The translations under genes were made by a program, and so were the position numbers. The notes below the pieces were generated by a model. The model had not been told where the DNA came from and ran no database searches. It saw only the letters and a list, made by a program, of their open reading frames with translations. A stretch of DNA of 39,789 bases from Thermoplasmatota archaeon (GTDB lineage: Archaea; Thermoplasmatota; Penumbrarchaeia; Penumbrarchaeales; Penumbrarchaeaceae): contig JARVGK010000004.1 of assembly GCA_029762535.1 (NCBI GenBank), positions 82,314-122,102 on the forward strand, read 5' to 3'. Below, one piece after another: positions 17,038-26,039 of this stretch. Within the stretch, counting starts at the first letter, position 1; the number at the start of each line of letters is the position of its first letter.

Positions 17038-19350
17038 TCAGTTGGGATAGTACCTGGGCCTCAGGCCAAGGTCCTCCTCGTTCACCATCCCCGAGTCCCT
17101 CAGGAACTGGACGTGGTAGAAGACGACGTTGCGGGAAACGCCCACGTCCTTCGCGATCTCGGACTGGGTCCTGCCCGGCCTCTCCCTGATGGAGCGGAGT
17201 ATGTTCTCCTGTATCCGGGACAGCCTGACCCTCTCATCGCGGTCCCTGGTCCCGGCCTGGTAGAAGAGACGGTTGTTCCCGTCCTGCTCGGAGACTATGA
17301 GCTGCTCCTTTTCGAGCACGTTGATGTGATGAGAGAGGGTCCCCACCTCCAATTCCACGGCCCTCTGTATGGACCGGAAGTGGTCCCCGGGGTTGTTAAC
17401 GATGTGATCGTATATGCGCTTCCTGTTCTCCTGGTCCAGAACGTTCCTGTTGTGCCTCGAATAGGCGAAGATCCCGATGACGAATAGTATGGATACGACC
17501 CCGATCAGGAAGAGGATGAACAGGGGAAAGGCGGATAGATCATTCGCTTCTATTGGAGATGATGGATAATAACCATTGCCATCAGGTCCTTCGCCACCCT
17601 TCGGGTCATCCACGTCGATGGGATCCTTATCTTCGGACCCCTCATCTATCACCAGGATGAAGGACGTATATTTGGTCACGAAGGAATGGTTCAGGGCGAG
17701 CGAGACCACCTGCGAGACCAGCTCCTCCTTCTCGCCCTCTACCGTGATCCTGTCCATGAGATCGGCGATCGCCCTATACGCCCAGATCCTCGGGATCATG
17801 TCCATGGCCGAGTCCGGATCGACGACGTATTGCTCTGAATAGGAAACGTCCCCGGTAGCGTCCCTCGCGGTGACGGAAGCGTCGATGTGTTCGATCCCCG
17901 GCTCGAACCTCCCGAGGATCACCGCCTCGGATCCCTCGTAGAGCCCCGGGATGCTATCCGGCAGGACCTGGTATGTCCCGGGCCTGTAAGTGAATACAAT
18001 ATCCATCAGCAGCGGAGTGGAAACGGTGTCGTAGAAGCCCTGCAGCAAAGCTGATGCATCGGCGTTGGCGGGGATCCTCACGGACGTTCCCCCGTTCTCC
18101 AGTGCCAGGGCCTTGAGGAACTCGAAGTCGACATCGGAACCGAACCCTATCGTGTATATCGACGCCTCCTGATCGTTCGAGGCCTTCACATTGTTTCTTA
18201 TCGAGTTCTTGTTCGTGACCCCGCTAGTGGGCAGCCCGTCTGTGAGAAAGATGACCATGGGTATGGACCCGGTATCATCGCCGAACATGTCCAGGGCCTT
18301 CAGGAGCGCCCCGTTGATATTGGTGGATCCACCTGCCTCAATGCCCTTTATGTATCCCTCGGCCGAGTCCATGTTCTGGGTGGAGGCCGGTATCAGGCCG
18401 TCCTTCCAGACGGTGATCCTGTCGTCAAAGACGACGATGTTGAAATCGTCCCCTTCGAGCATCTGGCCGACGATCTCGCCGAAGGCGTCCTTCATCTGCT
18501 CTATCTTCTGCCCGGACATGGAGCCGGACCTGTCAAGGACGAATATGATGTCCTTGGGCAGATGGGATCCCAACCCCTCGAGTTCGGGGGTGAACAAATG
18601 CATGAAGTATCCGCCGGTATCGTCCTGATATGTCCTCAGTATGCCCGTTCCCGGCCTGGACTCCTCCCTGAACGATAGGTATAACCTGTCCCCCTCCGAG
18701 AGCTGCGATGTCGCGAAGGCGAGATGTGCCTCGTTCGTCCCGTTCCACTCTTCGGTCATGTTCGGTAAAGATCTGGAAGTATCCAGCTCCGTGATGTTGG
18801 AACTGGAGCGTACGTATATGTTTCCCCGACATATCTCGAAACCGGTGTATCCGCCGATCCCGAACAGGTCGAACGAATAGGAATAGTTCCCCAGGACCCT
18901 CGTTATCATCCTCTCGAACCTCAATCCCACGACGACCTCGGATCCCGCCTTGACGTTAAGGGATACCGAGAACGTATCGGGGCTCCCACCTCCCTCCACC
19001 TTCGAGGCGGTCCTGTTGCTCTCGGTGGCGTTCTCGTATTCTTTCGAGGCATCCTCCTTCGTAGCCACCCTCGCGAAATGGACAACACCTTCCTGCTCTA
19101 TCGAGAGGTTTGAAAGTAGCGAGTCCCGGGGGATCCTTACAGAGAACACAGTATCCCTGTCGCTGTCCGATGGGTTGTTGAACGTGGCGAACACGTTCGT
19201 CACGGCGTAGTGCTCGTCTATTGACACATCGATGAGGATCGATGACCTGATAAGCCCCTCCTCCGATGCGTGTCCGTCATTTGAAAGAAGCGCGGCGGCC
19301 GCAAGAGAACATACGAGCGCGATGCATATCGTCCGCATTGACCTGTTCAT
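17038..19350 (-). CDS. Signal peptide-VIT-vWA-TM-tandem wHTH fusion protein (candidate membrane-bound transcription regulator)
   Basis: N-terminal hydrophobic signal, VIT domain, MIDAS DRSGSM and FLTDG, FVTKYTS motif, one TM, then RIYDHIVNNPGDHF..HHINVLE and RPGRTQSEIAKDVGVSRNVVFYHV. GGGTGA SD precedes ATG 19350. Confidence 0.9.
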   Translation of the reverse strand: MNRSMRTICIALVCSLAAAALLSNDGHASEEGLIRSSILIDVSIDEHYAVTNVFATFNNPSDSDRDTVFSVRIPRDSLLSNLSIEQEGVVHFARVATKEDASKEYENATESNRTASKVEGGGSPDTFSVSLNVKAGSEVVVGLRFERMITRVLGNYSYSFDLFGIGGYTGFEICRGNIYVRSSSNITELDTSRSLPNMTEEWNGTNEAHLAFATSQLSEGDRLYLSFREESRPGTGILRTYQDDTGGYFMHLFTPELEGLGSHLPKDIIFVLDRSGSMSGQKIEQMKDAFGEIVGQMLEGDDFNIVVFDDRITVWKDGLIPASTQNMDSAEGYIKGIEAGGSTNINGALLKALDMFGDDTGSIPMVIFLTDGLPTSGVTNKNSIRNNVKASNDQEASIYTIGFGSDVDFEFLKALALENGGTSVRIPANADASALLQGFYDTVSTPLLMDIVFTYRPGTYQVLPDSIPGLYEGSEAVILGRFEPGIEHIDASVTARDATGDVSYSEQYVVDPDSAMDMIPRIWAYRAIADLMDRITVEGEKEELVSQVVSLALNHSFVTKYTSFILVIDEGSEDKDPIDVDDPKGGEGPDGNGYYPSSPIEANDLSAFPLFILFLIGVVSILFVIGIFAYSRHNRNVLDQENRKRIYDHIVNNPGDHFRSIQRAVELEVGTLSHHINVLEKEQLIVSEQDGNNRLFYQAGTRDRDERVRLSRIQENILRSIRERPGRTQSEIAKDVGVSRNVVFYHVQFLRDSGMVNEEDLGLRPRYYPN

Positions 19351-19395
19351 GTTTTCACCCGAGCGAGAAGAGGGCCCCGAGCTTATATATGCAGA

Positions 19396-19478
19396 TTGGA
19401 ACATCAATTGTACAAGTATATACCATTTTTGGAACAGTATATATTATCAACATAGATAATATATTATATGTTGGCACC
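19396..19478. promoter_or_regulatory. AT-rich divergent promoter region with direct and inverted repeats
   Basis: TTGGAACA at 19396 and 19429 (near-copy TTGGCACC at 19471). Perfect 10-bp inverted repeat ATATATTATC-N6-GATAATATAT at 19439-19464. Confidence 0.55.
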
Positions 19479-20348: not shown

Positions 20349-21800
20349 ATGCGCAGGACCAAGATAGTCTGTACCATAGGCCCCTCATGTTCGGACATCG
20401 ATATGCTCACCGAGCTCCGTGAGGCCGGAATGAACCTTGCCAGGCTCAACATGTCCCACGGCGATCACGCCTTTCACAAGAGGGTCTTCGATTCCATCAG
20501 GGACATGCCCGAAGGAAAGGCCATCCCCGTCATGTTCGACATACAGGGGCCGAAGATCAGGGTCGGGCGCCTTGACGGACCGATGATCGTCAAGGCGGGA
20601 GAGAGTATCGAGGTGTTCCCCGGAGAGGGTCCCGGATCCGAGAACCGCCTCCCGATAGATTATCCGAAGCTGCTGGAGGAGCTTAAGGTCGGGGACGAGG
20701 TGTTCATCAACGACGGGACCGTTCGCATCGTGGTGGCCCGGGTCGAAGGGGACCATCTTCTGTGTACGGTCGAGAACGGGGGCGTGATCTCGGAGAGGAA
20801 GGGGTGCAACATCCCCTCGAGCAACCTCTCGGTATCCGTCCCGACCGATAAGGACCTCAGGGACCTTGATTTCATATCGGCATTGGACCCAGAATACATA
20901 GCGGTCTCTTTCGTCAACTCGCCCGATGACGTGGAGAGGGTCAGGGACCTCCTTATCGAACTCGGAGCCCCTCGCGTCAAGCTCGTATCGAAGATCGAGA
21001 GACCGCTGGCCCTGAAGAACATAGAGGGCATAATCGAAAAAAGCGACGCCGTGATGGTCGCACGGGGCGATCTCGGCGTGGAGATCCCGCCCGAGTTCGT
21101 GCCCCAGGCGCAGAAGGATATAATCCTGAGTTGCAACAGGGGTGGAATACCGGTCATCGTCGCAACGCAGATGCTCGAGTCCATGGTATTGAACCCCCGA
21201 CCCACCCGCGCGGAGGCCAACGATGTTTTCAACGCTGTCCTCGATGGCGCGGACGCGCTCATGCTCTCCGCCGAGACCTCCGCTGGCAGATACCCGGCAG
21301 GGTCCGTCCGGTTCATGGACAGGATAATCAGGTCCGCCGAATCCGTCCTGCAGATGAGGGACCCTGACTACTATGACTCACCCAAGGGGAGCGCCGTGGA
21401 AGCGGCCGGGCACGCCGTGTTCACCCTCGCCAAGGAGATAGTTGAAATGCAAAGGAAGGGCTGTATAATCGCCGTGACCGAAAGCGGGTTCTCCGCAAGG
21501 ATGATCTCCAAATACAGGCCAGTCCTGCCCATCATCGCCATGAGCCCGGATGAGAGAACCTCGAGGGAGCTCGATCTGGTCTGGGGCGTGAGGCCCGTGC
21601 GCTCGAGGGACCTTGTCCACGGGGATATCGAGTCCCGAGCCGTATCGGCCCTGACCTCCGCCCGGAAGATGGGGCTGGTAGGTCCAGGCGAGAGCGTGAT
21701 AATGGCCTTCACATCGATCGAATGCGGAGGGGCCGGCATATACACGGCGATCTACGATGTCGATGAGGTCCTGGCAAGGTGCTCAGACGGGGCGGTGTGA
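20349..21800 (+). CDS. pyk: Pyruvate kinase
   Basis: RRTKIVCTIGPS, ARLNMSHG, DIQGPKIR, SKIE, MVARGDLGVE, ATQMLESM, PTRAE..DV.NA..DG.D..MLS.ET. Confidence 0.97.
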   Translation: MRRTKIVCTIGPSCSDIDMLTELREAGMNLARLNMSHGDHAFHKRVFDSIRDMPEGKAIPVMFDIQGPKIRVGRLDGPMIVKAGESIEVFPGEGPGSENRLPIDYPKLLEELKVGDEVFINDGTVRIVVARVEGDHLLCTVENGGVISERKGCNIPSSNLSVSVPTDKDLRDLDFISALDPEYIAVSFVNSPDDVERVRDLLIELGAPRVKLVSKIERPLALKNIEGIIEKSDAVMVARGDLGVEIPPEFVPQAQKDIILSCNRGGIPVIVATQMLESMVLNPRPTRAEANDVFNAVLDGADALMLSAETSAGRYPAGSVRFMDRIIRSAESVLQMRDPDYYDSPKGSAVEAAGHAVFTLAKEIVEMQRKGCIIAVTESGFSARMISKYRPVLPIIAMSPDERTSRELDLVWGVRPVRSRDLVHGDIESRAVSALTSARKMGLVGPGESVIMAFTSIECGGAGIYTAIYDVDEVLARCSDGAV

Positions 21801-23078
21801 CCCCCATTTCTCCAGCGCCTCCCCGAGGGCAGGAGCGCTCCTTGCCTTCTCCTTAAGCGAGATCCCATCGTTGAAGGCCTCGATCGCCTGCATGGATGCC
21901 TCGGCGCCTCTTCTGGTCCCTTTCGGATGGCCGTGTATGCCTCCGCTGACGAGCAGCACCATGTCGTTGCCGTAGAACCTCATCACGTCCGGGACAAGCC
22001 CTGGGTGCAGTCCTCCGGAGGCAACGGGGAAAGCGCTCTTGATCCTCCCCCAGTCCTGTTCCAGTGTCCTGCCCTCGTAGGCAGGGGTGCGCTTCAACCT
22101 CATGATACCCGCCAGGGACTCGAGCTCCGTCTCCGTTCCGACCAACTTCCCCACGGCTGTTCCCGTATGCAGCTGGTCCATGCCGATGAGCCTCATCTCC
22201 TTGGCCAGGAACTGCATGGAGATCCCGTGGTGGGGGTCCCTTGTGAACGAGGCGTGCATGGCCCTGTGGGCGTGTATGGTCATTCCCAGGTCGGAAAGGA
22301 AGGCCCTCATCGTCTGCAGTGCCGATGTCCCGACGATAACGACGTCCATCATGACGTAGTCGAACCCGTGATCGTGAAGGACCCTGGCCCTTCGCTTCAT
22401 CTCCTCCGTCTCCGCAGTGATGTTGACGAACGCGCCCTTTCTCTCTCCCGTGAGCCTCTCCGCCTTCTCCCTGTATCTCGCTATCAGCTCCACCCTCTTG
22501 TCGAACTTGTTGAAGGATAGGGAGGAGAGGTTCTCATCGTCCTTGACGAAGTCGAAGCCTCCCATCCAGGTCTCGAAACCCACCCGGGCATGCTCAGCGG
22601 CTGAGAAACCGATCTTTGGTTTGGGAACGGCCCCGGTGAGGGGCCTCTTGTATACCTTATAGCGCTTTCTGATCCCTTCCATTCCAACGAGCGGGCCCTT
22701 GAACGCCCTGACGTACGATGGTGGGAAGCGTACATCGATCAGCCTCAGGCTCCTTACGCCCTTCATTCCGAATATATTGCCCGCGATCCCGCTTTTGAGC
22801 TGGGCGAAGTTACCCCTCTCCCATAGAGCGGAGGGATAGGAGACCTTCAGCAGGTCACCCCTCATCCAGTATGATGTGGCTTTGAGCGCATCCATCCTCT
22901 TGGGCATGTTCGACAGCGTCGTCCACGTTCCCGTCGAGCTCTCGGAGGCGATCCTCCCCGCGGATTCGGCCCTTGACATCCCCTCGGGAGGCTCGAATGA
23001 GAACAGCGCTATGATATCTTCCTTCTCTGGCTCGTGTTCCATATCGACGAACTCGCCGTACCAGTCTATAGTGCTCAT
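21783..23078 (-). CDS. rbcL: Ribulose-1,5-bisphosphate carboxylase, form III (archaeal type)
   Basis: ESSTGTWT, AGNIFGMK, PKPK, GGFDFVKDDEN, HAHRAMH, LHTGT.VGKL, ASGGLHP, GGIHGHP. Catalytic residues are present and there is no small subunit. Confidence 0.95.
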   Translation of the reverse strand: MSTIDWYGEFVDMEHEPEKEDIIALFSFEPPEGMSRAESAGRIASESSTGTWTTLSNMPKRMDALKATSYWMRGDLLKVSYPSALWERGNFAQLKSGIAGNIFGMKGVRSLRLIDVRFPPSYVRAFKGPLVGMEGIRKRYKVYKRPLTGAVPKPKIGFSAAEHARVGFETWMGGFDFVKDDENLSSLSFNKFDKRVELIARYREKAERLTGERKGAFVNITAETEEMKRRARVLHDHGFDYVMMDVVIVGTSALQTMRAFLSDLGMTIHAHRAMHASFTRDPHHGISMQFLAKEMRLIGMDQLHTGTAVGKLVGTETELESLAGIMRLKRTPAYEGRTLEQDWGRIKSAFPVASGGLHPGLVPDVMRFYGNDMVLLVSGGIHGHPKGTRRGAEASMQAIEAFNDGISLKEKARSAPALGEALEKWGSHRPV

Positions 23079-23100: not shown

Positions 23101-23170
23101 CGTATAAATGTAGTGCTTGATGCCGCTTGGCCATGTTGATATTAATCGTTTCGTAAACTGTTTATAATAT
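23101..23170. promoter_or_regulatory. Back-to-back TATA boxes for rbcL (- strand) and pnp (+ strand)
   Basis: TTTATA on the minus strand at 23103-23108, about 25 nt from the rbcL ATG (leaderless-type spacing). TTTATAA on the plus strand at 23161-23167. Confidence 0.6.
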
Positions 23171-23187: not shown

Positions 23188-23403
23188 GGAAAGAAAAAGA
23201 AAAAAAAATATGGGCCGGCCATCGAGGGATAGGCCCGGGAAGCGTATTCACGTTCATGCGGTGTGTTCGAACCCGCTTTCATCCACGAAGGATGGGACCC
23301 GATCGGACCTCGTGGTCCGGGACGGGACGGTTTTTCCACGCATGGTCCTGTTGCGGACCGGTTCATCCCCGATAGGGGACCTGGCACTGGAAAAGGTGAT
23401 GTA
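23188..23403 (+). other. Long structured 5' leader (or ncRNA) of pnp
   Basis: A-tract followed by successive stems: GGGCC/GGCCC, GCGG/CCGC, CATCC/GGATG, CGGACC/GGTCCG, GGTCC/GGACC, TCCCC/GGGGA, and a closing TTTTCCA/TGGAAAA next to the SD AGGTGA. Confidence 0.6.
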
Positions 23404-25659
23404 ATGACGTATAAAAAGTTCGAGATGGAGCTCTCGGGAAAGAAATTGACGATAGAGACGGGAAAGCTGGCACTTCAGGCCGGATCATCAGTGACCGCCA
23501 GGATCGGGGATACCCTGGTCCTTGCCACGGTGACGATGGCCAAGAAACCCAGGGCGAACATGGACTTCTTCCCCCTGATGGTGGACTACGAGGAACGATA
23601 TTTCGCGGGGGGAAAGATAAAGGGCCCCAGGTTCATGAAGAGGGAAGGAAGGCCCTCCGGAGAAGCCATTCTGATAGGTAGGATGATAGATCGGGGCCTC
23701 AGGCCTCTGTTCCCCAACGAGATAAGGAACGATATTCAGGTCATATTGCTGCCGCTCAGCCTGGACGAGGAGAACAGGCCGGACATCGTCGGGATGATAG
23801 CGGCATGCACGGCATTGCATATGTCAAACATCCCATTCGACGGACCGATAGCCGGATTGAGGGTCGGGATGGTGACGGGGGACCTCGTGATCAATCCGAC
23901 CATAGAGGAGCAGGAGTATTCCGAATTGAATCTCGTGGTGATGGGGGACAAGGACAGGCTCACAATGGTGGACTGCGACGCAATGGAGGTAGATGACGAG
24001 ACCATGAAGGTCGCATTCAAGGAGGCGATGAAGGCTCTGGAACCTCTGACATCGTTCATAGACGACATAAGAAAGGAGATCGGACATGAGAAGTTGAAGG
24101 TCGAGGACCTGGCAAAGCCCTTGGAGCTCTCGGATGAGGACAAGGAGGCCATAAAGAAGCTCAAGGCCGCCTCGAAGCCCATGCTGAAGAAATACCTGTT
24201 CAACTCTCCCAAAGGATCCAAATCCGAGCGATGGGACGTCCTTAATAAGATGGAGGAGGAGCTGGTGGAGAAGAACGCCTCCAAGTTCGTTACCGGGGAC
24301 CGCGATGAGGAGGCCTCGAAAGAATACCTGAGTAAACTCTTAGGGAATTTCTTCCACGATTACATAGAGGAGCAGGTCACCCTTGCGATACTGGACAGCG
24401 ACCAGAGGGTGGACGGACGGACACTGGACCAGATCAGGCCCCTGTCCGCCGAGGTCTCCATCCTTCCCCGAACACACGGATCGGGCCTGTTCTCAAGGGG
24501 TGAGACGCAGATACTTTCCGTCGTCACATTGGGGTCGCCCGGGGACGATCTCATAATAGAGACCATGGAGCGCAACGAGAACAAGAGGTACTTCCATCAT
24601 TACAATTTCCTCCCCTACTCCGTCGGGGAGGTGAAACCTCTTAGGGGCGCTGGCAGAAGGGAGATCGGCCACGGCGCGCTTGCCGAGAAGGCACTAAAGC
24701 CAGTGTTGCCGCTCGAGGACGAGTTCCCGTACACGATAAGGGTGGTGAGCGAGGTGATGGGGAGCAACGGTTCCTCCTCGATGGCGAGCACCTGCGGCTC
24801 GACCCTCGCCCTCATGGACGCGGGCGTCCCGTTGAAGAGGCATGTAGCGGGCATAGCTATGGGGCTCGCATCGGACGGAAAGAGATGGAAGGTCCTCACG
24901 GACCTGCAGGACCTCGAGGACGGTGCCGGTGGAATGGACTTCAAGGTCACTTCGACCAGGAACGGCTTGACCGGGGTACAGATGGACACGAAGACGCGGG
25001 GGCTCTCAAGCGAGATCATAGAGGCGACGTTCCCGCAGATGAGAAAGGCCATCGATGAGGTCCTCACGGTGCTGGAGACGGCGATACCGGAGCCCAGAAA
25101 GGAGCTCTCAAGTTACGCACCCAGGATCATACAGATGATGATCGACCCGGAGAAGATAGGCGAGGTCATAGGCCCCGGAGGCAAGGTGATAAGGGGGCTG
25201 TGCTCCGAACTGGGCGTCGACATCGACGTGAACGATGACGGAATAGTCACCATCACATCGACGGACCCGGTCATGGCAAAGGAGGCCGAGGAGCGGATAA
25301 AAGGGATCGTCAAGGTGGTCGAGGTCGGAGAGGTCTATCGCGATGTCGAGGTCGTGAGGATACTGCCCTTCGGCGCGATGGTGGAGATAACCCCCAACAC
25401 CAACGCACTTATCCATATCTCGGACATAGACTGGGAGAGAACCCCCCGTGTGGAGGACAAGCTCAAGATCGGTCAGAGGGTGGACGTCAAGGTCGTGCGG
25501 ATGGAGAGGGGCAAGATCGACGTGTCCATGAAGGCGCTGAAGCCCAGACCTGAGGGTTTCAGCGAGAGCCAGAGCAGGGACGACAGAAGGTCAGGTCCCC
25601 GTGACCGCGACAATCAGAGGAACCGTAACAGGCCGAGGCCGAACTTCAAGAGGAATTAG
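23404..25659 (+). CDS. pnp: Polyribonucleotide nucleotidyltransferase (bacterial-type PNPase)
   Basis: ETGKLA.QA, DFFPL.VDYEE, REGRPS, R.IDR.LRPLFP, HGSGLF.RGETQ, HYNF...SVGE, RREIGHG.LA, SNGSSSMAS, MDFKV, KH (IGPGGK.I) and S1 domains. AGGTGA SD precedes ATG 23404. Confidence 0.97.
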   Translation: MTYKKFEMELSGKKLTIETGKLALQAGSSVTARIGDTLVLATVTMAKKPRANMDFFPLMVDYEERYFAGGKIKGPRFMKREGRPSGEAILIGRMIDRGLRPLFPNEIRNDIQVILLPLSLDEENRPDIVGMIAACTALHMSNIPFDGPIAGLRVGMVTGDLVINPTIEEQEYSELNLVVMGDKDRLTMVDCDAMEVDDETMKVAFKEAMKALEPLTSFIDDIRKEIGHEKLKVEDLAKPLELSDEDKEAIKKLKAASKPMLKKYLFNSPKGSKSERWDVLNKMEEELVEKNASKFVTGDRDEEASKEYLSKLLGNFFHDYIEEQVTLAILDSDQRVDGRTLDQIRPLSAEVSILPRTHGSGLFSRGETQILSVVTLGSPGDDLIIETMERNENKRYFHHYNFLPYSVGEVKPLRGAGRREIGHGALAEKALKPVLPLEDEFPYTIRVVSEVMGSNGSSSMASTCGSTLALMDAGVPLKRHVAGIAMGLASDGKRWKVLTDLQDLEDGAGGMDFKVTSTRNGLTGVQMDTKTRGLSSEIIEATFPQMRKAIDEVLTVLETAIPEPRKELSSYAPRIIQMMIDPEKIGEVIGPGGKVIRGLCSELGVDIDVNDDGIVTITSTDPVMAKEAEERIKGIVKVVEVGEVYRDVEVVRILPFGAMVEITPNTNALIHISDIDWERTPRVEDKLKIGQRVDVKVVRMERGKIDVSMKALKPRPEGFSESQSRDDRRSGPRDRDNQRNRNRPRPNFKRN

Positions 25660-26039
25660 TACAGGTCCCTACGGCCCAGGAACGCCCATAACAGCAGAAC
25701 GCACCACATCAGGGCCGCGAAAAGGTTCACGGTCCAGAAGGACCTCTTCCTGATCTTGTGACGGAACAGGAACATTCCAGCTAGCGATCCGGAGAACCCT
25801 CCAAGGAGGGGCAGAAGCAGCAGCAGGGACTCCGGGACCCTCCTTTTATTTGCGAGCGACGCCCCCTTGTCGATCGCATACAGGGCCAGGGCGGTCGCGG
25901 AAGAGGCGGCGATCCAGGAAAGCATCGGCCCGAGCGGGGTCAGGTACCAGAGAGTTGCGAAGGTCAGAAGCGTCGTGATCATCGAGGCTACCCAGAAAGG
26001 ATCCCTCTTCGCCCCCTCGTCCCTTCCTATCGAGGTCAT
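25656..26039 (-). CDS. DUF1294 (YsdA-like) membrane protein
   Basis: LYAIDK.A....RRVPE..LL....LGG..G...GM.LFRHK.RK signature. Confidence 0.88.
   Translation of the reverse strand: MTSIGRDEGAKRDPFWVASMITTLLTFATLWYLTPLGPMLSWIAASSATALALYAIDKGASLANKRRVPESLLLLLPLLGGFSGSLAGMFLFRHKIRKRSFWTVNLFAALMWCVLLLWAFLGRRDLY

Follow-up and report, generated by a model that had tools for sequence, protein, structure and literature searches.

A Patescibacteria-type polynucleotide phosphorylase resident in Thermoplasmatota archaea, and its probable takeover from a deleted exosome

Introduction

Degradation of RNA from the 3′ end in archaea has been described as the task of the exosome, of RNase R or of an unknown enzyme, and polynucleotide phosphorylase (PNPase) as an enzyme of bacteria and organelles (PMC1635327, PMC7144898). 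Here we describe a pnp gene, coding for PNPase, in a stretch of 39,789 nucleotides (the window) from the metagenome-assembled genome (MAG) of a Thermoplasmatota archaeon (NCBI GenBank assembly GCA_029762535.1, contig JARVGK010000004.1; G000:C47:82314-122102 in the numbering used below, in which G, C and L designate genomes, contigs and loci). Probably, the gene encodes a functional PNPase that is native in the archaeon, was acquired once from a bacterium of the candidate phyla radiation (CPR; Patescibacteria), and replaces, with an RNase R-like partner, a deleted exosome. The NCBI pipeline already names the PNPase proteins of such MAGs correctly; its host and its evolutionary effect set the gene apart, not the protein family. 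No report of a PNPase in these archaea was found in literature searches covering Thermoplasmatota, Marine Benthic Group D, Thermoprofundales and Patescibacteria–archaea.

Bacterial Pnp (models TIGR03591/NF008805; solved structures 5yjj, 4am3 and, for Escherichia coli, 3cdi/7ogk) has the same layout of RNase PH domain, helical linker, RNase PH domain, KH domain and S1 domain as the window PNPase. In contrast to the bacterial rpsO–pnp operon with its RNase III-cut leader, the window gene lies behind a TATA-like element, and its product has PRFMK instead of SFFR in the aperture loop, GG instead of GD before MDFK, a longer helical linker, and an added basic low-complexity C-terminal tail. The closest enzymes are CPR PNPases of the Uhrbacteria/Falkowbacteria type, with up to 53% identity and with the loop insertion and the ED[GS]xGGMDFK motif in common; they differ in their retained rpsO–pnp context, their length of ~705–735 aa, and, mostly, the lack of the archaeal linker extension.

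The archaeal exosome (an Rrp41/Rrp42 hexamer with an Rrp4/Csl4/DnaG cap) belongs to the same fold family and likewise places an RNase PH ring under S1/KH domains. Its chemistry is that of PNPase as well, with phosphorolytic decay in the 3′→5′ direction and the addition of A-rich tails (PMC1635327, PMC4227792). It differs in being multi-subunit and encoded in the proteasome–exosome superoperon, and its four dedicated genes were not found in the window's genome. Judged from its sequence, the window PNPase descends from bacteria and consists of one polypeptide; it is not a fused exosome. Haloferax volcanii, other Halobacteria and Methanomicrobiales are also exosome-less and have an RNase R-like gene in common with the window's genome; they use the bacterial-type 3′→5′ exoribonuclease RNase R (PMC1635327, PMC7144898), and these lineages have no PNPase and no detected RNA tailing (PMC1635327). 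Unlike these RNase R-reliant archaea, the window's genome appears to keep a phosphorolytic and potentially tail-adding enzyme.

Results

Domain architecture and catalytic residues of the PNPase

The gene and the domains and motifs of its product are located in the window as follows.

23404–25659, + strand: pnp coding sequence (polynucleotide phosphorylase), 751 aa plus stop, with no internal stops in the translation and with Pfam, NCBIfam and PDB matches
23440–23835, + strand: first RNase PH domain (PF01138 match at G000:C47:105753-106148, 92.3 bits)
23623–23652, + strand: channel-aperture loop GPRFMKREGR, the counterpart in the alignment of the E. coli FFRR loop, with a one-residue insertion
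24430–24831, + strand: second RNase PH domain, the catalytic half (PF01138 match at G000:C47:106743-107144, 94.6 bits; Pfam residues 343–476)
24763–24780, + strand: phosphate-binding loop SNGSSS (S454–S459), invariant against E. coli, CPR and archaeal PNPases
24919–24945, + strand: metal-binding/catalytic motif D506...D512-F-K514 inside EDGAGGMDFK; D506, D512 and K514 invariant in the alignment
25129–25302, + strand: KH domain with a GPGG (GxxG) loop (PF00013, residues 576–633, E 6.4e-10; G590, G592 and G593 invariant)
25321–25530, + strand: S1 RNA-binding domain (PF00575, residues 640–709, E 1.3e-12)
25546–25656, + strand: C-terminal tail, basic and of low complexity, with many Arg, Asp, Asn and Pro residues, seen in the translation and without a counterpart in E. 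coli Pnp

The Pfam domains of the 751-aa protein (RNase_PH twice, E 7.5e-53, RNase_PH_C, KH_1 and S1) follow the order of PNPases, in which the first RNase PH domain is the non-catalytic half of the core in the characterised enzymes. Both PNPase equivalog models of NCBIfam are matched over profile positions 2–688 and far above their cut-offs (NF008805, 823.3 bits against 471; TIGR03591, 820.6 bits against 525), and the best match among solved structures is the PNPase 5yjj (E 4.5e-185), followed by the E. coli, Caulobacter, Streptomyces and human mitochondrial PNPases. The related families score below their cut-offs: the protein is neither Rrp41 nor Rrp42 (TIGR02065, 113.9 bits against 318.7; NF003282, 39 bits against 280) nor guanosine pentaphosphate synthetase I (GPSI; TIGR02696, 555.2 bits against 1106.75), and the NCBIfam model of stand-alone RNase PH is also far under its cut-off. 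As Rrp41 or Rrp42 we counted a single RNase PH protein of ~230–270 aa, over cut-off and located in the slot between the SBDS and L37Ae genes; the 751-aa protein lies on another contig than that slot, which is empty in this genome (see below). All sequence tests that we applied place the protein in the PNPase family, and the initial annotation of a complete bacterial-type PNPase, in which KH and S1 accompany a pair of RNase PH domains, holds in both the Pfam architecture and the equivalog scores.

Residues were compared in an alignment that set the window PNPase beside E. coli Pnp (41% identity) and two proteins each from CPR bacteria and from archaeal relatives. The SNGSSS loop and both metal-binding Asp residues, already described as retained when the sequence was first read, are invariant with E. 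coli Pnp; S457–S459, D506, D512 and K514 correspond to residues with catalytic roles in the E. coli and Streptomyces PNPase structures. Also invariant are the residues along the RNA path (Arg80, Glu81, Gly82, Arg83, Arg93, Arg97, Arg100, and Arg418/Arg419), and the aperture loop, longer by one residue, keeps one aromatic and several basic residues. The motifs quoted initially, GGKIKGPRF and DLQDLEDGAGGMDFK, are present exactly as given. Comparable C-terminal tails are found in the alignment in other PNPases of the archaeal clade and in one CPR protein.

Residency of pnp in an archaeal genome

The genome that contains the window (2.96 Mb, completeness 93.4%) is archaeal, with a full-length archaeal small-subunit rRNA gene (1513 bits) on contig C14. 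That it is a MAG of 102 contigs, with no rRNA, tRNA or ribosomal protein gene inside the window, would leave room for an artefact of binning or assembly, in which a bacterial (e.g. CPR) contig or a chimeric join has entered an archaeal MAG. Such an artefact is opposed by a relative assembled as a single contig of 3.58 Mb (G033), in which pnp lies at 2.277 Mb and the archaeal superoperon PsmA–SBDS–Rrp4–Rrp41–Rrp42–L37Ae at 2.636 Mb, and by closed 'Thermoplasmata archaeon' chromosomes of 4.2 and 5.2 Mb that also carry the gene. In five genera pnp is flanked by genes for type III RuBisCO and for one and the same ABC transporter, the divergent RuBisCO–pnp pair followed by the ABC gene being kept in four genera of the family besides that of the window. 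A second assembler recovers the same junctions, with the Logan assembly of run SRR24067139 giving the same order of pyruvate kinase, RuBisCO, pnp, DUF1294 and ABC genes. In addition, the rpsO–pnp linkage of the nearest bacterial matches is missing at the window locus, and the estimated contamination is 1.1%. In practice the artefact is refuted, its probability being negligible, and pnp is a native, vertically inherited gene of a Thermoplasmatota archaeon.

The composition of the gene is that of its genome (GC 0.569; GC3 0.776; codon usage inside the genome's spread), with ATA and AGG codons used above the genome average. The initial annotation had called pnp a resident gene and not part of a chimeric contig on account of these codons, a TATA box and a GGTGA Shine–Dalgarno element; codon analysis and inspection of the upstream sequence confirmed all three, and residency is now backed by orthologues across the family and class, a closed chromosome carrying both pnp and the superoperon, synteny, and the independent assembly. 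The named homologues with 55–80% identity are all from 'Thermoplasmatota archaeon' or 'Thermoplasmata archaeon' MAGs; they include contigs of 3.6, 4.2 and 5.2 Mb and the sediment archaeon SG8-5, a member of Marine Benthic Group D.

Distribution of PNPase in the phylum

The protein was used as a query (E ≤ 1e-60) against 301 sampled genomes of the phylum, 33 of which encode PNPase. Besides the single PNPase of the window's genome, the enzyme occurs in 20 of 23 further genomes of the window's family, in all of the 11 genomes from other families of the class, and in one of ~264 genomes outside the class (G050), whose PNPase nests within the archaeal PNPase clade. The survey of archaeal genomes suggested earlier was carried out within the phylum. 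Orthologues in the family and class are 54–70% identical to the window PNPase; the family is recovered as a clade in the PNPase tree (100/98), the nearest relative of the window's protein being that of genus g7 (70% identity). Class-wide presence, near-absence elsewhere and the family clade in the tree together indicate one old acquisition followed by vertical descent. The transfer is therefore ancient and class-wide and not peculiar to the window's genome, which goes beyond what had been foreseen from the window.

A PNPase labelled '[Eubacterium] cellulosolvens' (L054; GCA_975970955.1, CDLUMC010000227.1) also falls within the archaeal PNPases. The genes around it, which encode a KaiC-like ATPase with DUF7125/DUF7090, DUF973, and a pair of thiolase and DUF35, are of archaeal type, and the label is probably wrong.

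Phylogenetic position among Patescibacteria

When 1.84 billion representatives were searched exhaustively with HMMER, the best matches had 44–53% identity, all of the named ones being Patescibacteria (Uhrbacteria, 'Patescibacteria group' twice, Paceibacterota, Abawacabacteria, and Gracilibacteria), and the two nearest unnamed matches lie in bacterial rpsO–pnp operon contexts. On the contig of the closest bacterial relative, an NYN-domain gene is placed between rpsO and pnp (L035:797-1561). A search of genome contigs with the protein returned only three alphaproteobacterial ribosomal protein S1 loci, which are matched through the S1 domain and are of no phylogenetic use.

Trees were computed with FastTree (179 rows), with IQ-TREE in a quick run, and with IQ-TREE in a careful run (61 rows; LG+C20+F+G4 PMSF), the ultrafast bootstrap of IQ-TREE being not fully converged. 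All three trees agree that the archaeal PNPases are monophyletic (100/100 in the PMSF tree of 61 rows). The archaea lie within a clade of Uhrbacteria, Falkowbacteria and Patescibacteria rows (100/98) with more CPR rows around it, and the stem of the archaeal clade is long (0.40 substitutions per site); a Pseudomonadota cluster is placed near E. coli and distant from the archaeal clade. A clade of the 17 CPR-type rows without archaea, a group picked after the tree was seen, is rejected in the approximately unbiased (AU) test (delta lnL 60.6, p-AU 0.0058). A search seeded with the Uhrbacteria protein returned only CPR proteins of at least 62% identity, which makes the archaeal clade a neighbour of that group and not a recent offshoot.

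Two rare signatures agree with the tree. The motif ED[GS]xGGMDFK, elsewhere EDxxGDMDFK, occurs in 113 of 120 proteins of the archaeal clade, in all proteins of the Uhrbacteria neighbourhood, and, among 150 representatives, in four that are exactly the four sister rows. The aperture-loop insertion [SP]R[FWY]xK, in place of SFFR/GFFK, is present in 118 of the 120 archaeal proteins and in 31 representatives, the named ones being CPR. The variants GGKIKGPRF and DLQDLEDG.GGMDFK, which had been likened to those of CPR PNPases when the window was first read, turn out to be instances of these shared derived signatures.

The opposite direction of transfer, from archaea to CPR, or a third, unsampled bacterial lineage as the source of both, would be in keeping with the common habitats of CPR bacteria and sediment archaea and with the weak nodes just below the archaeal clade (79/31 and 84/86). 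The successive outgroups of the archaeal clade are, however, all bacterial, and CPR where named, and the loop insertion extends across a broad range of CPR proteins, with the GG motif confined to the inner group and the archaea, a nested pattern that fits a CPR origin. The sister bacterial genes, moreover, stand in the ancestral rpsO–pnp operon, and the rest of the phylum is without the gene. We regard either scenario as highly improbable. The sequence data support a single acquisition of the gene by the ancestor of the class from a CPR bacterium related to Uhrbacteria/Falkowbacteria. The initial annotation had proposed horizontal acquisition, a CPR donor and a PNPase phylogeny as the check; in that phylogeny the archaeal proteins branch from within the bacterial PNPases, among those of CPR, and the donor idea is borne out by the named closest matches, all Patescibacteria, together with the tree support, the AU test and the two signatures.

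Loss of the exosome and the remaining exoribonucleases

In three relatives (G006, G001, and G033), the exosome genes are found in the order PsmA, SBDS, Rrp4, Rrp41, Rrp42, L37Ae, prefoldin beta. The same string is assembled on contig C15 of the window's genome, where the gap between SBDS and L37Ae is ~70 bp and no exosome genes lie in between; the slot is empty in the same way in genera g3, g4, g5, and g6. The Rrp4, Rrp41 and Rrp42 sequences of the sister genus gave no tblastn match in the window's genome even at E ≤ 10, and no RNase PH domains were found there beyond the two of PNPase. Csl4 is over cut-off in three exosome-bearing relatives and was not found in the window's genome or in G004, a result of one family search in a 93%-complete MAG; the absence of rrp4, rrp41 and rrp42 is better supported than that of csl4 because it is syntenic.

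Across the phylum, 260 of the 264 genomes that lie outside the class have Rrp41, compared with 13 of 37 inside it; of the 28 genomes lacking Rrp41, 24 are members of the class that carries PNPase. Three of the 13 Rrp41 proteins in the class (G036, G028, and G032; loci L047, L048, and L049) have mostly lost the RKRPG, GTR and DED..D motifs common to the intact sequences, which correspond to the phosphate-binding and catalytic residues in the Sulfolobus Rrp41 structure. The degenerate rrp41 genes are still in place beside Rrp42, and these genomes appear to have catalytically dead exosome cores alongside PNPase. Read from gene content and motifs, the arrival of PNPase in the class was followed, in different genomes, by coexistence with the exosome, by its catalytic decay or by its deletion. 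The presence of rrp41, rrp42, rrp4 and csl4 had been named as a check, and the question whether PNPase replaces or supplements the exosome had been left standing; the first three genes are missing from their slot and no csl4 was detected, which points to replacement in the window's genome, while some relatives keep both systems.

An RNB-family, RNase R-like gene for a protein of 811 aa is located on the minus strand of contig C14, the contig of the archaeal 16S rRNA gene (G000:C14:90449-92884; L053:550-2985). Its product matches the RNase_R model with 343.7 bits, under the cut-off of 597.85; the gene is present in G006 and G004 and absent in G001 and G033. Several exosome-less relatives have a stand-alone bacterial RNase PH (TIGR01966, 312–338 bits, cut-off 141.5), for example at loci L051 (G008:C3:66700-67600) and L052 (G030:C11:67900-68750), which is not found in the window's genome.

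The RNase R-like gene bears on the alternative that PNPase merely supplements other enzymes, either because exosome genes reside in the unassembled ~7% of the genome (completeness 93.4%) or because RNase R dominates and PNPase is minor. Several relatives do combine PNPase with an apparently intact exosome, and in Haloferax RNase R suffices by itself and is essential (PMC1635327). However, the rrp4–rrp41–rrp42 slot is assembled and empty here, as it is in four further genera of the family, and Csl4 was likewise not found. In addition, nearly all genomes of the phylum in which Rrp41 is lost or catalytically decayed belong to the class with PNPase, as predicted by redundancy followed by takeover. 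A merely supplementary role of PNPase is quite improbable on this evidence.

Neighbouring genes and a possible link to nucleotide salvage

The genes adjoining pnp on its two sides are as follows, both on the opposite strand.

21783–23078, − strand: type III RuBisCO gene, divergent from pnp (TIGR03326, 528.9 bits, cut-off 497)
25656–26039, − strand: convergent gene for a DUF1294 membrane protein (PF06961, E 1.5e-17), whose 3′ end overlaps the pnp stop by 4 nt

The divergent spacer between pnp and the RuBisCO gene is ~325 bp long, and the adjacency is kept in genera g4, g5 and g6, with a remnant in g7. In a genome of the sister genus (G006; L006:900-1200), two short C-terminal RuBisCO fragments lie beside pnp in different frames, with 47–67% identity, and the RuBisCO gene looks degraded there. 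A pyruvate kinase gene adjoins the RuBisCO gene in the window, and AMP phosphorylase and ribose-1,5-bisphosphate (R15P) isomerase genes, both over cut-off, are located side by side on contig C40 (G000:C40:9550-12008).

These genes would suit a mainly metabolic role of PNPase, in which RNA is broken down to nucleoside diphosphates that pass through AMP phosphorylase, R15P isomerase and type III RuBisCO to lower glycolysis; such a role would explain the head-to-head pairing of pnp with the type III RuBisCO gene, which is kept in g4–g6, and the nearby pyruvate kinase. It is doubtful, since the adjacency is not seen in G033, the one locus of another family with adequate flanks, so that the linkage is not a property of the whole archaeal PNPase clade, and since PNPase yields nucleoside diphosphates whereas the salvage starts from monophosphates and an extra step would be needed. 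A metabolic role is also compatible with, and not exclusive of, the replacement of the exosome. RNA phosphorolysis could conceivably be tied to nucleotide-carbon salvage, the adjacency being specific to the family.

Further away, the window encodes at 17038–19407 (− strand) a 789-aa protein with VIT and von Willebrand A domains and two C-terminal winged-helix domains (HTH_HVO_0163_N and HTH_24), an unusual fusion of extracellular-type with DNA-binding domains.

Upstream region of pnp

The longest open reading frame of the gene begins with GTG at 23263; the starts of all orthologues align with the ATG at 23404, upstream of which the following elements lie.

23161–23168, + strand: TATA-box-like TTTATAAT in the sequence, candidate promoter of pnp
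23190–23403, + strand: putative long GC-rich 5′ leader of pnp (~230 nt), with a fold of −86.9 kcal/mol (z −1.96)
23395–23399, + strand: Shine–Dalgarno-like GGTGA, five bases 5′ of the ATG and at the same position in eight family orthologues

Most family orthologues have an aligned (A-rich)-TTTATA element 230–300 nt upstream of the ATG, and the leader length, a GGUCC...GGACC hairpin and the GGTGA element are kept in the family. The consensus fold of eight family members is weak (−11 kcal/mol, with a positive covariation term) and the folding energy is only marginally unusual, so that a regulatory leader is a lead and not a finding. No Rfam family was found in the window at the gathering threshold; a permissive scan for a known RNA in the leader gave a viral pseudoknot at chance level (E 0.05, far below gathering), which was rejected. 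A short ATG frame ~12 nt past the TATA-like box ('ATGGG' in relatives) was also rejected as a gene; its peptide is not conserved, and the segment is likely the region of transcription start.

The upstream region bears on an extended proposal in which the PNPase of this family would be wired into carbon and energy salvage: the ~325-bp control region common with RuBisCO and the structured leader of ~230 nt would form, around the CPR-derived enzyme, an RNA-scavenging module. The leader would then allow autoregulation, as the E. coli pnp leader does, and the breakdown of RNA to nucleoside diphosphates would be co-regulated with the route through AMP phosphorylase, R15P isomerase, RuBisCO and pyruvate kinase. 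We consider this proposal unlikely.

Discussion

By homology to trimeric PNPase structures (5yjj, E 4.5e-185), the archaeal PNPase is expected to form a ring-shaped homotrimer. Its S1 and KH domains would capture the 3′ ends of single-stranded RNA, which would be led past the basic–aromatic loop of the aperture to the second RNase PH domain, where phosphate bound at SNGSSS and Mg2+ bound at Asp506 and Asp512 would support processive 3′→5′ cleavage to nucleoside diphosphates. In the reverse reaction, the enzyme may add template-independent, heteropolymeric, A-rich tails. A single polypeptide could thereby supply what the Rrp41/Rrp42 ring and the Rrp4/Csl4 cap supply in other archaea. Because the four exosome genes are gone, we infer that PNPase and the RNase R-like hydrolase constitute the machinery of 3′→5′ decay and tailing in this archaeon.

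Several points weigh against this view of an old CPR gene that has taken over from the exosome. The RNase R-like enzyme could carry much of the decay load, as in Haloferax, and the absence of csl4 depends on the single search described above. Family f2, with small genomes and from the same order as the window's, has an exosome and no PNPase, and in three incomplete family genomes (68–83% complete) neither PNPase nor exosome was found, so that at least one loss of PNPase is needed. Named rows in the trees are sparse, the non-CPR labels being only E. coli and one Pseudomonadota cluster; the nesting within CPR consequently depends on the labelled subset, and the group in the AU test was chosen with the tree in view.

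The takeover by PNPase remains the probable explanation, and its interest extends beyond one genome, since a whole class of widespread sediment archaea carries the enzyme. The class provides a natural series from exosome with PNPase, through PNPase with a degenerate exosome core, to PNPase alone, which makes it testable whether PNPase and exosome are interchangeable and which roles of the exosome outlast its catalytic subunit. It also offers a clear and datable case of a core gene of RNA metabolism that would have moved from CPR bacteria to archaea and then become fixed. Models of transcript stability and 3′ tailing in these abundant uncultured archaea must include PNPase.

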